Assembly: GCA_016182045.1 (NCBI GenBank) | Contig: JACOYE010000011.1 | Location: forward strand, 39 to 64,038 | Direction of reading: 5' to 3' | From: Candidatus Microgenomates bacterium | Lineage (GTDB): Bacteria; Patescibacteriota; Microgenomatia; Daviesbacterales; UBA10151 | Length of the DNA stretch: 64,000 nt | Shown here: positions 24,561 through 28,846 of the stretch, piece by piece | Numbering within the stretch: position 1 is the stretch's first letter | Layout of the letters: each line of letters starts with the position of its first letter | Position numbers and translations under genes: made by a program | The notes under the pieces: generated by a model | Told to the model about the DNA's origin: nothing | The model's input: only the letters and a program-made list of their open reading frames with translations | The model's database searches: none

Positions 24561-26552
24561 TCATACATTTAACCATTCTTCCTCATCAACTCCAGTATCC
24601 GTATCATCCAAGAATTGATCTGAATCTTTAAAAGTAGCATTTGATGAGATTAAGTGCTCAGGGATATCAGACAAGAAACGGGAAACCAGATTATTAGATC
24701 TTGTGCCAAAATATAATCTTTGTCTGGTATATGTTAAATATAACTTTTCCTTGGCCCGAGTAATCCCCACATAACAAAGCCTTCTTTCTTCCTCCAGTTC
24801 ATTAACATCAAGCATGGATCTAGAATGAGGGAACAATCCCTCCTCCATGCCTACTATAAAAACAACAGGAAACTCTAAACCTTTGGCAGAATGTAGGGTC
24901 ATTAAGGTTACTACATCTTGAGCTTGATTATTGGGGATGTTAGGGCGGCTAGGTAAATAGCCATTTTCCACCAAAGCTACATTTTCTAAAAAGTCTACTA
25001 AATTGGGAAATTCTTCTGCCACAGATCGAAGTTCTTTGACATTTTCCACCCGTCCCTTTCCTTCTTCAGTGCCATCATCTAAATATGTCAAGTAGCCTGT
25101 GACTTGTAGGATTTTATCCAGAAGCTCCATAGTGGTGTAACCACTTTCGTCATTGCGAGGAGACGTAGTCGACGAAGCAATCTCATTAACAAGATTGCCA
25201 CGCGAACTTCGTTCGCTCGCAATGACGTTTTGCAACTCCATTATTTTTGCAAGTCTGCCCTTACCAATTTTTTCTGCCCGCTTTAAGGAAACAGAATCTT
25301 TGGGATTTTGTAAAAGTCTTAAATAGGCAAGAACATCTTTAATTTCTTTTCTTTGATAAAAACTGACTCCACCGACTAATCTGTAAGGGACGCCCGATTT
25401 TAAAAATTGTTCCTCCAAAGACCTTGATTGGGCGTTAGTACGGTAGAGGATAGCAAAATCTGATAGCGGTTTGTTGTCATTGCGAGGAGACGTAGTCGAC
25501 GTGGCAATCTTTATTTTTGAGCCAGATTGCTTCGCTTCGCTCGCAATGACGTTTAAAATGAATAAAGTTTCCGCTACCTCATTTCTTACTTCCACCACTT
25601 CTATTTTTTCTCCTCCATCTTTTTGAGTCCAAAGTTTTAAAATTGGATGAGATTTATTTTTGGAAATAACAGCATGAGCTGCATCCAGGATGTTTTGAGT
25701 AGATCTATAATTTTGTTCAAGATTAAAAATTTTGGCATTGGGATAGTCTTTTTCAAAATTGACTATATTTCTAAAATCAGCTCCTCGGAATGAATATATG
25801 GACTGGCTTGCATCACCTACTACGCAAATGTTTTTATGACGGTTAGCCAAATATTTAGAAATTAAATATTGGGCAGGATTGGTATCCTGATATTCATCGA
25901 TTAAGATATATTTAAATTGGATTTGATATCTGGTTAAAATGGCTGGTTCTGTTTGAAAAAGCTGGATCACTTTTAATAGCAGATCATCAAAATCCAAAGC
26001 ATGATTTTTTTCCAAAATTTTCTGATATTCCAGATAAATTTTGGCCACAAGTTCCTGGAAAAAACCTCTGGCATATTGAGGATATTCTAAAGAAGAAATT
26101 AATTCATTTTTGGCCCCGGAGATGGTGGCCCGAACTGCAGAAGGGGAGGTTTTTTGAGTTGGAATATTTAAATTACCCATGGCTTCTTTGATAGCATCCA
26201 AAGCATCGGATTCATCATAAATAGCAAAGCCGGGAGGAAGCCCTAGCACTTTGCCTTCACGACGCAAGATTTTGGCACAGAAAGAATGGAATGTGCCCAT
26301 CACTGGTTGGGTGGGAAGATCGCCAATTAATTTTTTAATTCGCTCAATCATCTCTCCGCTGGCCTTATTTGTAAAAGTTAATACAAGTATATTTTCAGGT
26401 GGAATTTTCTTCTCAGAAATTAAGTAAGCCACTCTGTAGGTGAGTACTCTGGTTTTTCCAGAACCAGCTCCGGCTAAAATTAAAACTGGGCCTTCAGTTT
26501 GTTTGACAGCTTTTTGTTGAGCGGGATTTAGATCATCTAGGAGAGCAGACAT
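24561..26552 (-). CDS. UvrD/PcrA/Rep-family superfamily-1 DNA helicase (start moved to ATG at 26552, MSALLDDLNPAQ)
   Basis: LLDDLNPAQQ, Walker A GAGSGKT and motifs through TLHSAKGLEFPVVF...RRLCYVGITRAK. It carries two in-frame MITE-like inserts. Confidence 0.9.
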   Translation of the reverse strand: MSALLDDLNPAQQKAVKQTEGPVLILAGAGSGKTRVLTYRVAYLISEKKIPPENILVLTFTNKASGEMIERIKKLIGDLPTQPVMGTFHSFCAKILRREGKVLGLPPGFAIYDESDALDAIKEAMGNLNIPTQKTSPSAVRATISGAKNELISSLEYPQYARGFFQELVAKIYLEYQKILEKNHALDFDDLLLKVIQLFQTEPAILTRYQIQFKYILIDEYQDTNPAQYLISKYLANRHKNICVVGDASQSIYSFRGADFRNIVNFEKDYPNAKIFNLEQNYRSTQNILDAAHAVISKNKSHPILKLWTQKDGGEKIEVVEVRNEVAETLFILNVIASEAKQSGSKIKIATSTTSPRNDNKPLSDFAILYRTNAQSRSLEEQFLKSGVPYRLVGGVSFYQRKEIKDVLAYLRLLQNPKDSVSLKRAEKIGKGRLAKIMELQNVIASERSSRGNLVNEIASSTTSPRNDESGYTTMELLDKILQVTGYLTYLDDGTEEGKGRVENVKELRSVAEEFPNLVDFLENVALVENGYLPSRPNIPNNQAQDVVTLMTLHSAKGLEFPVVFIVGMEEGLFPHSRSMLDVNELEEERRLCYVGITRAKEKLYLTYTRQRLYFGTRSNNLVSRFLSDIPEHLISSNATFKDSDQFLDDTDTGVDEEEWLNV
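25149..25226 (-). mobile_element. 78-bp MITE-like palindromic element with 12-bp terminal inverted repeats (gtcattgcgag...ctcgcaatgac), in-frame in the helicase gene
   Basis: 78 bp = 26 codons, translated as VIASERSSRGNLVNEIASSTTSPRND. A second copy lies 337 bp away. Confidence 0.5.
25486..25560 (-). mobile_element. 75-bp second copy of the MITE-like element, in-frame in the helicase gene
   Basis: 75 bp = 25 codons, translated as VIASEAKQSGSKIKIATSTTSPRND. The first 26 nt and last 13 nt are identical to copy 1, and it has the nested gcaatct/agattgc inverted repeat. Confidence 0.5.
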
Positions 26553-26588
26553 GAAGCATATATTAACATTTGCCAGCAAAGTTGACAA

Positions 26589-26619
26589 AGTTTGTAAGAT
26601 TTCAGTTAAAATTTAGGTA
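26589..26619 (+). repeat. Direct repeat DR-A copy 1 (agtttgtaagatttcagttaaaatttaggta, 31 bp)
   Basis: Perfect identity with 27602-27632. Together the copies bracket the GC-rich segment. Confidence 0.9.
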
Positions 26620-26917
26620 AATTTTCAATGTTTGGAGGCTAAAGTATTGAAAAATATGTTAAAATATCATTGAAATCTTATGCCAGAAAGGATAAGGATC
26701 GTATTTCTACCTTCAGGACTACTCCGATAGAGGTAAATTACGAGCTATCAACACGGAAACAGAAGCACCAAAGCAGCCGCCGATAGAACGTTTAAAACGA
26801 CTCTTAGTAGGGTGGGCAAGGCGTGGTCGCACAGGGACAGAAGCAAATCCAGAACAACAGATATTAACTCCTGTCCGTCTTAAAGACTATCTTCTACAAG
26901 CAGCAAAAAGCCCATCG

Positions 26918-27556
26918 TTGGCAGTTAATCCCATGCCTAAAGTTTTTGACCTTGGGGAATTTGGAAGAGAAGCAGAAAGATTATTGCACCTATCCCTGAG
27001 AGATCCTAAACACCCGGAGTATGCCTCAATAGCTTGCATTAACGATAAAGGTCGGCTCGTCATCTTAAAGGAACCCATCCGAGGTGATGAGAGGAGCGTT
27101 CCGGTTCCCGCCCCCAAGGATAAACGCAGGGTCCTTTTGCTACATACCCACGGTGACACTGATACTCCTTTCTCCGCAAGTGATTTAGAGGGCTTATTTG
27201 TGCCCTCAGCCGAGAATGGGGTTCCAGCCGTGCTTCTCGCCACTCCGAGTCTGAAAATGCTGATTCTTCGCACCAAAGATACTCCCTATCTCACGCCGCT
27301 TCAAATTGAAGATAGGACTGTGATGATGTGGCTCCACCCAGCTACGGAAGAGGAGAGAAAACTATTCGAAGCTGGTTATCAGGCAGCGGGCGGTGAAGAA
27401 GCCGATAGGCCACCAGAGCTTACTCCAGAGTATAAGCAAGCCCTTCGTCAGCTCAGCAGCAAGCGAATGTTCGTGCTCACCCGCGCTGCCCATGAGTATA
27501 ATCTCAAAGGCTACTCTTGCCCATCTAACCAGAATATTGTGTCACTTCTCAGCTAA
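26918..27556 (+). CDS. JAB/MPN (JAMM) metalloprotease-domain protein on a GC-rich foreign segment, probably 5-prime truncated
   Basis: LLLHTHGDTDTPFSASDL is a perfect HxHx7SxxD JAMM/RadC-like motif, with an upstream Glu in ILKEPIRGDE. The frame is open from 26696 (74 codons upstream of the TTG start) with no start codon. GC is roughly 50% by eye against AT-rich flanks. Confidence 0.5.
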   Translation: MAVNPMPKVFDLGEFGREAERLLHLSLRDPKHPEYASIACINDKGRLVILKEPIRGDERSVPVPAPKDKRRVLLLHTHGDTDTPFSASDLEGLFVPSAENGVPAVLLATPSLKMLILRTKDTPYLTPLQIEDRTVMMWLHPATEEERKLFEAGYQAAGGEEADRPPELTPEYKQALRQLSSKRMFVLTRAAHEYNLKGYSCPSNQNIVSLLS

Positions 27557-27601
27557 CCCGCATCTTTAGTGGCGAGCCAGAAAATGGTGGGGTCACTTCC
27601 C

Positions 27602-27632
27602 AGTTTGTAAGATTTCAGTTAAAATTTAGGTA
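27602..27632 (+). repeat. Direct repeat DR-A copy 2
   Basis: Identical 31-mer to 26589-26619. It abuts DR-B copy 1. Confidence 0.9.
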
Positions 27633-27633
27633 G

Positions 27634-27653
27634 TTTTCCCCTAGACAATTTTT
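27634..27653 (+). repeat. Direct repeat DR-B copy 1 (ttttcccctagacaattttt, 20 bp)
   Basis: Identical 20-mer at 28540-28559. The copies bracket the two-gene NTase cassette. Confidence 0.8.
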
Positions 27654-27679
27654 GGCTTTGGAAATGGTATAATTAAGGT

Positions 27680-27943
27680 ATGTATAACTGGTCTGTTGAT
27701 GAAAAAAGGTTTAAAAAGGAAAACCCTAAAGAGTATAGACTGTGGAGGTTGGTGCAGCTGATAAACTATGGACTGGATGGAGAAAAACTGGATAGGGAGG
27801 AGGTCAAAAAAGCCTGGCCGAAGATTAAAGATCAGCTTGATCCATATAAGGCTAGGGCAATAGAATATTTATTATGGGGAAAGCTATACTCACTCCCGAA
27901 CAACTTAACTTTCTGGAATTTATCCAAAAAGAACAACAAATAA
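27680..27943 (+). CDS. Small hypothetical protein upstream of and overlapping the NTase gene (candidate partner/antitoxin)
   Basis: 87-aa ORF. It overlaps the next ORF by 70 nt in another frame. No family recognised. Confidence 0.3.
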   Translation: MYNWSVDEKRFKKENPKEYRLWRLVQLINYGLDGEKLDREEVKKAWPKIKDQLDPYKARAIEYLLWGKLYSLPNNLTFWNLSKKNNK

Positions 27944-28539
27944 CCAAACGCTTTTATTGGACCGGCGGAACAGTTCTTTCTGAATTCTACCTGCAACACA
28001 GACTTTCGGAAGATATAGATTTATTCAATGAATTTGAGGAGGTAAATCAGAGTTTAATAGATGCTTTCTTAAAAAAGATTTCACCTTCACTTCAAGTAAC
28101 AGAGATTAAGAAAAGTCAGTTTTTAGGTTTAGTGAGTTATATCTTGGTTTTTAAAAATAGTCAGAAACTAAAAATAGATTTTAATTATTATCCATTTCCT
28201 AGAATTGAAAAAGGCAAGAAATATAAAAATTTAGAGATAGACAGTATTTATGATATTGCTGTAAATAAAGTGCATACTATGTTTATGCGGACAAAAGCCA
28301 GGGATTTTGTTGACATTTATTTCATCATGAAAACAATTGATTATCATTTAGATCAGCTCATCAGGGACGCGAAGGTTAAGTTTGACTGGCATATTGATAA
28401 AGTTACTTTGGCCAGTCAATTTATGAAAGTCAAAGAAATTAAAGATTTACCTAAAATGTTGTTACCATTTAATCAAAAAGATATGGAAAAATTTTATCTA
28501 AAGCTGGCTAAATCTTTAGAAGAAGAGATCTTAAAATAA
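27874..28539 (+). CDS. Pol-beta-superfamily nucleotidyltransferase, AbiEii/DUF1814-like (abortive-infection / type IV TA toxin family)
   Basis: YWTGGTVLSEFYLQHRLSEDIDLF matches the GG...S.DhD NTase motif and AbiEii N-terminal architecture. 221 aa. Confidence 0.55.
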   Translation: MGKAILTPEQLNFLEFIQKEQQITKRFYWTGGTVLSEFYLQHRLSEDIDLFNEFEEVNQSLIDAFLKKISPSLQVTEIKKSQFLGLVSYILVFKNSQKLKIDFNYYPFPRIEKGKKYKNLEIDSIYDIAVNKVHTMFMRTKARDFVDIYFIMKTIDYHLDQLIRDAKVKFDWHIDKVTLASQFMKVKEIKDLPKMLLPFNQKDMEKFYLKLAKSLEEEILK

Positions 28540-28559
28540 TTTTCCCCTAGACAATTTTT
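28540..28559 (+). repeat. Direct repeat DR-B copy 2
   Basis: Identical to 27634-27653. It lies immediately upstream of trxA. Confidence 0.8.
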
Positions 28560-28585
28560 TAAACTATTGTTATTATCTAAATCTT

Positions 28586-28846
28586 ATGGCAGTTAAACTT
28601 TTGGATTTTTGGGCTCCTTGGTGTGGACCCTGCCATGTTATGACTCCTGTTTTGGAAGAGATTAAAAAAGAAATGGGAGATAAGGTGGAAATTGAGGAAA
28701 TTAATGTAGATGAAAAACCTGAGGAAGCTTCTAAATTTGGAGTCATGAGTATTCCTACCTATATTATATTAAGGGATAATAAAGAGGTTGGAAGGAAAAT
28801 TGGGGTTACCCCAAAAGCAGAGCTAATAAAACTTCTACAAAGTTGA
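28586..28846 (+). CDS. trxA: Thioredoxin
   Basis: WAPWCGPC active site, 86 aa. Confidence 0.9.
   Translation: MAVKLLDFWAPWCGPCHVMTPVLEEIKKEMGDKVEIEEINVDEKPEEASKFGVMSIPTYIILRDNKEVGRKIGVTPKAELIKLLQS

Follow-up and report, generated by a model that had tools for sequence, protein, structure and literature searches.

Bacteria of the candidate phyla radiation (CPR; Patescibacteria) have tiny genomes and are thought to be host-dependent, and the way in which they acquire genes is little understood. A locus of Candidatus Microgenomates bacterium (contig JACOYE010000011.1) raises this question in a concrete form: in the 64,000 nucleotides (nt) of the contig analyzed here, which are called the window, a GC-rich segment lies between two copies of a 31-nt direct repeat and encodes a JAB/MPN (JAMM) protein in an open reading frame (ORF) whose upstream part holds no canonical start codon. 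Is this ORF the remnant of a larger gene, as proposed in a first-pass annotation of the window, or a complete one, and how could it have reached this place? The evidence assembled below makes it probable that the segment is a horizontally acquired cassette of 923 bp carrying one complete, ACG-started JAMM/MPN+ gene, set in a slot between uvrD and trx of a Daviesbacteria-like chromosome, the slot being marked by a 90-nt element, E. Positions are those of the window, and features lie on its forward (+) strand unless stated otherwise.

A GC-Rich Cassette and Its Open Frame

The GC content of positions 26696-27601 is 0.494 against 0.383 for the full 64-kb window, of which this is the sole marked GC peak, and the GC content at third codon positions is 0.44 in the JAB gene against 0.27-0.37 in neighboring host genes; the earlier estimate by eye of about 50%, unlike the host, was accurate. 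The sequence AGTTTGTAAGATTTCAGTTAAAATTTAGGTA forms a perfect 31-nt direct repeat at 26589-26619 and 27602-27632, none being expected in shuffled sequences, so the description of foreign DNA between 31-bp repeats also holds. The GC-rich cassette itself (26683..27605, 923 nt, GC 0.49) lies between two copies of element E, E1 and E2, and its sequence identifies it as foreign, horizontally acquired DNA, probably recently arrived, since its GC content has not been ameliorated. The independently assembled Logan contig L003, present in four samples (SRR12113430 among them), matches 26590-27631 at 100% identity.

The JAB frame (26696..27556, the frame of the first-pass annotation) runs without stops from 26696 to a TAA at 27554-27556 (286 codons plus stop) and is preceded by a TAA at 26693-26695; the earliest canonical in-frame starts are TTG at 26918 and then ATG at 26933. 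When the 74-codon start-less stretch above the TTG was shuffled, 1.5% of the shuffles were stop-free, and 0.1% were both stop-free and start-free. The stretch had been called protein-like, and this is borne out by its alignment with the N-termini of homologues and by a confidently modeled helix within it.

Extent and Start Codon of the JAB Gene

Full-length homologues have 240-290 amino acids (aa), and the window frame spans their entire length; the closest relatives, complete proteins with 267-289 aa, have N-termini that align with the start-less stretch of the window. The helix PVRLKDYLLQAAKS (residues 62-71), conserved family-wide and modeled with a predicted local distance difference test (pLDDT) score above 90, is encoded upstream of both TTG 26918 and ATG 26933. 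At the position where translation begins, the closest relative (protein P0002, contig L001) reads AAC ATG GAA and L002 reads TAT ATG GAA, while the window reads AAC ACG GAA, with ACG at 26753-26755; the same ACG is present in L121 (CAT ACG GAA), in L122 and L123 (TAG TAA CCG CAT ACG GAA), and in L124 (CGG CAT ACG GAA). In L122 the upstream stop lies just two codons before the ACG, and neither ATG, GTG nor TTG occurs from the upstream stop to the conserved helix in the window, L121, L122 or L124. Read from ACG, the window product has 267 aa, which is the length of P0002, and those of L121, L122 and L124 have 247 aa each. Comparisons among the latter three give a synonymous divergence (dS) of 0.55-0.77 with a ratio of nonsynonymous to synonymous divergence (dN/dS) of 0.18-0.24; on these values, the three ACG-bearing genes have been kept functional across substantial divergence by purifying selection. 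The most likely reading of the aligned sequences is, then, a conserved ACG start, from which the proposed complete JAB gene would run from 26753 to 27556. The missing start had been taken for a sign of 5-prime truncation, which is at odds with three intact homologues under selection that likewise have ACG where others have ATG.

In L122 and L124, TTGACA-17/18-TA(T/G)A(G/A)T boxes end 8 nt before the ACG, and L005 has an equivalent promoter arrangement 9 nt before its ATG; boxes at this distance from the start suggest leaderless or near-leaderless mRNAs. Two points tell against the ACG reading for the window. To our knowledge, ACG does not count among the accepted start codons of bacteria, and the start list of table 11 does not include it; moreover, the window copy has no clear TTGACA-17/18-TAnAnT promoter upstream of its ACG and could be silent for want of the arrangement seen in L122 and L124. 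In Escherichia coli, initiation at ACG reaches about 0.1-1% of that at AUG and yields an N-terminal Met (Hecht et al., bioRxiv 10.1101/063800). A near-cognate start of this type would hold JAB expression very low.

It is unlikely, although it is the alternative that survives best, that the gene was inactivated recently, its ATG having mutated to ACG after capture, so that the intact frame reflects nothing but recent acquisition. The whole of 26696-26917 lacks a canonical start, neither a convincing promoter nor a Shine-Dalgarno sequence precedes the window ACG, and the unameliorated GC content of the cassette marks a recent arrival, all in favor of this reading; nevertheless, ACG-GAA is common to the three diverged homologues, with their intact 247-aa frames, dS of 0.55-0.77 and dN/dS of about 0.2, and the window copy keeps every catalytic residue. 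Less probable still is a real product of 212 aa (from TTG 26918) or 207 aa (from ATG 26933), as gene callers would have it. Both codons come first among the canonical starts of the frame, with the catalytic motif downstream of them, and the called product of the window, P0001, has 207 aa; however, the callers truncated all four ACG genes (products of 169-207 aa) because no canonical start precedes the conserved helix, and this helix is missing from all four called products. Two of them, P0011 (L122) and P0012 (L121), are also without the catalytic Glu, which the starts called there would remove. The helix (LKDYLLQAAKS) is present in essentially all full-length members, so that the 212- and 207-aa products would lack part of the fold, and no Shine-Dalgarno sequence precedes either 26918 or 26933. 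The 212-aa ORF had been named as the finding that would overturn the first interpretation if it proved a complete gene; without its conserved, well-packed N-terminal helix, it does not look like one.

A short ORF in a frame different from that of the JAB gene, MPERIRIVFLPSGLLR*, can be read from the sequence at 26680..26730, its ATG being formed at the right tip of E1. A +1 frameshift from this ATG (26680) into the JAB frame was considered and rejected: homologues have their start where the ACG lies, and this ATG is part of the E tip.

A Family of Standalone JAMM/MPN+ Proteins

The JAB/MPN (JAMM) domain with an H-x-H-x7-S-x2-D motif, recognized in the first reading, is exact: the motif LLLHTHGDTDTPFSASDL corresponds to H150-x-H152-x7-S160-x2-D163 of the window translation. 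In Pfam, DUF4329 (PF14220) matches the protein at 29.4 bits, with a gathering cutoff of 28.6, and a weak Prok-JAB match covers the HxH..S..D stretch; the RadC family model gives no Pfam match at E<=1. The catalytic Glu of the family is the conserved E108 (27017-27019, within 'HPEYAS'), and not a residue of LKEPIRGDE, where it had been sought, since the glutamates there are not conserved in the family. The JAB/MPN core comprises residues 83-192 of the 286-aa translation (26942..27271), with H150 at 27143-27145, H152 at 27149-27151, S160 at 27173-27175 and D163 at 27182-27184; it is followed by a family-specific C-terminal region of helices and a beta-hairpin (27272..27553), with the conserved pattern ...KRMF.L....Y.L..YSCP..N.

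A profile search of 1.84 billion representatives returned 198 relatives, nearly all standalone and mostly of about 200-290 aa. Aligned with one another, 36 diverse members have a mean column identity of 18%, and L86, E108, H150, H152 and D163 are invariant, with S160 nearly so; E108, H150, H152, S160 and D163 are all intact in the window copy. Structure comparison places the window protein in the MPN fold, with prokaryotic JAMM/MPN+ deconjugases (PfJAMM1, CBASS Cap3 and BilC) and RadC as the top structural matches. The Pfam assignment is the weaker side of this picture, the match being marginal and only 6 of the 36 members reaching DUF4329 at E<=0.01. PADLOC, PHROGs and NCBIfam gave zero matches for the JAB protein, a sequence profile search of the PDB gave chance matches only, tblastn against PLSDB plasmids and INPHARED phages found nothing, and an alignment of the close family against GTDB genome contigs, JGI metagenome contigs and IMG/VR yielded zero confirmed JAB loci.

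By its sequence and modeled fold, the window protein is a predicted standalone, metal-dependent JAMM/MPN+ hydrolase, and its family (about 200 clusters) is an uncharacterized and in practice unannotated one that sequence comparison makes a distant relative of Tox-JAB-2/DUF4329. By analogy, its biochemical role may be that of an isopeptidase or peptidase, or of a nuclease as proposed for Tox-JAB; a role as a lone secreted toxin is unlikely because a delivery domain and an immunity gene are both missing.

Origin of the JAB Gene

Relatives at 45-51% identity sit in contigs with a GC content of 0.55-0.60, one of which belongs to a Dehalococcoidia metagenome-assembled genome (MAG), and the JAB homologues of L005 and L007 adjoin Replic_Relax proteins together with TrwB-like (coupling-protein-like) or HerA-like ATPases, gene surroundings that, by their annotation, represent the context of a conjugative or mobilizable element. 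A likely source of the window gene is a Chloroflexota-type mobile element, because its GC-rich relatives adjoin relaxase and coupling-protein-like ATPase genes. In AT-rich, CPR-like contigs the JAB gene forms a single-gene island; its GC-rich character is plain in the window, L008 and L124, and its GC content is closer to that of the host in L001 and L002. No neighbor is conserved across the JAB loci, and flanking repeats were not found at the JAB islands of L001, L002, L008, L121, L122 and L124. The most economical reading of these sequences would be a cytoplasmic hydrolase of mobile-element origin at low expression.

Element E and the 31-nt Repeats

From the alignment of related loci, the 31-nt repeat is the left end of the 90-nt element E. 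Its first copy (26589..26619) consists of AGTT and the first 27 nt of E; the second (27602..27632) contains E2, which is limited to the left 27 nt of E (27606-27632) and is followed by trx-type promoter sequence. The complete copy, E1 (26593..26682), is bounded by terminal inverted repeats (TIRs) TGTAAGATTTCA ... TGAAATCTTA(TG), contains an inner hairpin and, close to its right end, a -10-like TAAAAT, and can be aligned with the 90-nt elements that at least eight related contigs have at this locus. The consensus of E has perfect 12-nt TIRs, TGTAAGATTTCA ... TGAAATCTTACA, with TG...CA ends; between them lie an inner hairpin and, close to the right end, a TATAAT box. The perfect TIRs are present in seven of eight aligned copies, the right TIR of L098 having one mismatch, and in E1 of the window TG stands in place of the terminal CA. 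The DNA fold z-score of E1 is -3.6. A metagenome scan with ATTTCAGTYAAAATTTARGT gave 32 loci, 10 of them with the full motif, and those long enough to be tested were all at this locus. Left-end-only copies also terminate the arrays of L010 and L099, as E2 does in the window. Rfam returned nothing at E<=1 for 26400-28700, and E is therefore not a known RNA family.

Several further observations concern E and its borders. AGTT runs 4 nt past the end of E in both repeat copies (26589-26592, 27602-27605), and CCAG is found at the cassette start (26683-26686) and 2 nt before the cassette end (27600-27603) as a microhomology. The central loop of E, GTTTTGAGGCTAAA, is reverse-complemented as TTTAGCCTCAAAAC in L103 (1688-1777) and L099 (1107-1196), a reversal relative to the copies of the window, L101 and L110 that corresponds to a flip/flop inversion between the inner inverted repeats. 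A dif/Xer-type site was also considered and rejected, the 31-mer being without two-arm symmetry by eye.

The Slot between uvrD and trx

The slot, which is specific to this lineage, is flanked on its left by a conserved uvrD/pcrA helicase gene (24561..26552, minus strand) and on its right by a conserved thioredoxin gene, trx (28586..28846). The UvrD of the window is 75% identical to that of a Ca. Daviesbacteria MAG and to that of a Patescibacteria MAG, which points to a Daviesbacteria-like host, and the gene order in relatives is G5/3D, uvrD, variable slot, trx, (MGMT), TIM, lytR. The closest relative at this locus, L101 (UvrD 80.5% identical), has uvrD, 53 nt, a single E, 53 nt and trx, that is, an empty site. 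At the other extreme, L110 has five copies of E, four at 98-100% identity and the trx-proximal one at 87%, with four cassettes of 1095, 2695, 671 and 991 nt between them, whose GC content is 0.54-0.58 where the host has 0.31-0.35; L097, L105 and L108 are independent assemblies of this organism. In L010, a Daviesbacteria MAG, the slot holds an insert with a helix-turn-helix gene and vapC (GC 0.46-0.59) between variants of E, and the 31-nt repeats flanking it are, in reverse complement, homologous to that of the window; most named relatives of the L010 VapC are from Chloroflexota, the best being 74% identical in a Chloroflexi MAG, in agreement with the Dehalococcoidia relative of the JAB gene. 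Cassettes carry one to three genes in either orientation, and they are GC-rich in four of the five cassette-bearing genomes, the cassette of L103 being AT-rich. ORFs of the L110 cassettes had zero matches in PADLOC, PHROGs and NCBIfam. A circular-permutation test for an ORF across joined cassette ends found GC-rich DNA open in many frames; in cassette 2 of L110, joining the ends reconstitutes an ORF of 294 aa.

That the arrangement in the window is an assembly artefact, a 1013-bp unit being in reality circular, tandem or from another strain and threaded into the contig through the shared 31-mer, is very improbable. Logan contigs built at k=31 do stop exactly at the repeats (L003 covers 26590-27631, and L004 starts from 27603), and short k-mers cannot tell an inserted from a circular form because these contigs break there; nevertheless, E-cassette-E at the same locus recurs in independent assemblies (L010; L110 versus L097 and L108; L098), and the GC-rich cassette and the AT-rich E1 are contiguous in one contig. 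Hardly any credence is left to the earlier proposal that the ORF is the 3-prime part of a larger foreign gene, severed at capture: the frame indeed stays open, with no start, back to a stop that lies 10 nt into the cassette, and in L110 cassette edges are reached by several open frames of at least 40 codons (which is not decisive in GC-rich DNA), but the family is standalone at 240-290 aa, all of which the window frame covers, the closest homologue starts at the ACG position, and the in-frame TAA at 26693, within the cassette, bars any longer N-terminal continuation.

Related loci show several peculiarities of the slot and its flanks. An N-terminal piece of uvrD (aa 4-36) has been duplicated in L098 (1583-1681 and 1740-2205); after it come the right half of E, a cassette of 325 nt (GC 0.56) with an ORF of about 115 aa, and a full E; ATGCC opens this ORF at the boundary, and the window cassette likewise follows ATGCC at the tip of E1 (26680-26684). 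In L099 (1071-1106) a 36-nt GC-rich sequence, GGATGTAGGGCCGGGCGTGGAAATAGGTCCGCATGC, lies between a full and a left-end-only E and resembles the residue of a deleted cassette. The trx gene is apparently split in L108 (4793-6481), L103 (2175-3860) and L110 (1-1653), where matches to residues 1-44 (...WAPWC) and 13-86 lie about 1.3 kb apart, with IDPQTPVLTENGYF after the Cys, an arrangement suggestive of an intein, or of a partial trx copy arisen by duplication, at the active site. Within uvrD of the window (25148-25554, minus strand), a palindromic unit of 35 nt, GTCATTGCGAGGAGACGTAGTCGACGAAGCAATCT / AGATTGCC...GCAATGAC, occurs in frame four times, twice as a direct and twice as an inverted copy, and UvrD is shorter in L009 (642 aa) and L010 (613 aa) than in the window (663 aa). 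The motif GCAATGAC / GAAGCAATCT also flanks the JAB homologue of L122 (1-120), and the unit may be a repeat resembling a miniature inverted-repeat transposable element (MITE) that is tolerated within coding sequence.

How Cassettes May Enter the Slot

In L110, L099 and L090, a distance of 39-43 nt separates E from genes for IS21 IstA and IstB, which match NCBIfam models at equivalog level; the IstA proteins are 69-81% identical. The istAB pair (7637-9629 in L110; also in L097, L105, L099 and L090) is placed between E and uvrD and reads in the direction of uvrD, whose ATG comes immediately after the istB stop. The outward TTGACT of E forms, with the sequence upstream of istA, a TTGACT-17-TATAAT promoter. 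In a side observation, the IstA match to the NCBIfam model begins at profile position 50 (residue 6), and the IstA beside E may, to judge from this alignment, be short of the typical N-terminal part.

Cassettes would enter by recombination or transposase action at E. One candidate route is a Campbell-type, homology-driven or transformation-associated recombination; another is an IS21-type IstA/IstB reaction resembling the cointegrate reaction of tandem IS21. IS21 ends are TG...CA, the terminal CA being required (PMC10122671). Cassette 2 of L110 (3628-6322) both starts and finishes with CATACAG (7 nt), abutting E copies, as expected if two element ends had attacked circular DNA. Several findings weigh against a capture platform run by such an enzyme: matching ends occur in just one of about nine cassettes; there is no target-site duplication at the solo E of L101, nor at the E copies of L110 and the window; tblastn finds no istA or istB in the window, and no cassette-insertion enzyme is present there; no E-like or recognizable right inverted repeat follows istB; and a repeat of another kind, 23 nt long, borders the neighboring abiE module, a finding that favors homology-driven recombination over a site-specific enzyme.

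The Neighboring AbiEii Module

Beyond the second 31-nt repeat, an 87-aa ORF and an overlapping gene for an AbiEii nucleotidyltransferase (NTase) toxin make up a separate module (27680..28539); AbiEii itself (27874-28539) matches PF08843 at E=1e-15 and 16 PADLOC AbiEii models. A 23-nt direct repeat, TAGTTTTCCCCTAGACAATTTTT, at 27631..27653 and 28537-28559 brackets this AT-rich module. The repeat equals TA[G/A]TTTTCCCCTAGACAATTTTT, the duplicated -35 region of a trx-type promoter, and the module has the form of a second insertion bordered by sequence duplicated from this same intergenic region. A look-up of identical proteins for the 87-aa ORF and for UvrD found none on record.

AbiEii is not a partner of the JAB gene. 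The place of the JAB gene beside the NTase had been noted together with a mention of CBASS (cyclic-oligonucleotide-based anti-phage signaling system) Cap3, and a Cap3-like or ubiquitin-like-system protease acting with this neighbor can be all but dismissed: the NTase is the AbiEii of a type IV toxin-antitoxin pair and not a CD-NTase, its DNA is AT-rich, host-like and bracketed by its own repeat, no gene for Cap2 (the E1/E2 enzyme) is present, PADLOC gives no match to the JAB protein, and an NTase neighbor is absent from every other JAB homologue locus examined.

Significance and Comparison with Known Systems

Taken as a whole, the gap between uvrD and trx may tentatively be regarded as an undescribed, integron-like capture platform, in which an expandable, E-bounded array receives cassettes largely from GC-rich (Chloroflexota-type) neighbors or hosts, an IstA/IstB pair that became fixed beside uvrD may operate the exchange, and an ACG-started JAMM family is a recurrent cargo at low expression; this broader proposal is appreciably less secure than the description of the cassette and its gene. 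In the literature searched, nothing relevant was found on a CPR cassette system of this kind. For bacteria whose gene acquisition is so obscure, the uvrD-trx locus offers a concrete and repeatable acquisition site with an empty-site control (L101), at which the mechanism and the donors of E-bounded cassettes, apparently Chloroflexota, become directly testable. An ACG kept under purifying selection would, if true, be a natural non-canonical start codon in bacteria, and gene callers systematically truncate genes that begin in this way. The presence of the JAB family beside relaxases in mobile elements makes it a candidate for an enzyme of conjugation establishment or of anti-defense.

Among known protein families, the closest likeness is to Tox-JAB-2, which overlaps DUF4329, the sole Pfam family above threshold; Tox-JAB-2 is a toxin domain of the JAB superfamily with a conserved E, H[ST]H, S and D (Zhang et al. 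2012, PMC3482391), the same signature as in the window family. In Tox-JAB-2 the domain is the C-terminal toxin tip of RHS, PAAR or secreted proteins, with an immunity gene adjacent, whereas the window family is standalone, with no secretion or RHS part and with a C-terminal region of its own of about 90 aa; the context of a polymorphic toxin is likewise absent, no conserved neighbor gene being found among eight JAB-family loci. PfJAMM1, Cap3, BilC and RadC have the catalytic motif in common with the window protein at a sequence identity of just 7-16%, and the window JAB gene is without ubiquitin-like, E1/E2 enzyme or CD-NTase partner genes. The start codon recalls the near-cognate starts measured in E. 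coli, among which ACG, one base from AUG, gives low-level initiation with Met; the difference is that a bacterial gene family would here retain ACG as its native start codon.

The element and its arrays resemble two mobile systems without coinciding with either. With IS21, E shares the TG...CA termini and, in three genomes, istA and istB directly beside it, and the promoter formed between E and istA recalls the hybrid promoter at the junctions of tandem (IS21)2; it differs from IS21 and from MITEs in that the solo E has no target-site duplication, and the adjacent istAB has no right inverted repeat, abuts uvrD and is missing from the window. With integrons, the locus shares an array of unrelated foreign cassettes at one chromosomal site, separated by imperfect palindromes of about 90 nt that are capable of forming hairpins, the site-proximal copies being near-identical. 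In contrast to integrons, E has no RYYYAAC/GTTRRRY cores on inspection by eye, and no IntI is encoded by the genes flanking the arrays (uvrD, or istA/istB and uvrD, on one side and trx on the other); instead, E ends in TG...CA, like the end of a DDE transposon, and the number of genes in a cassette is one to three, oriented either way.

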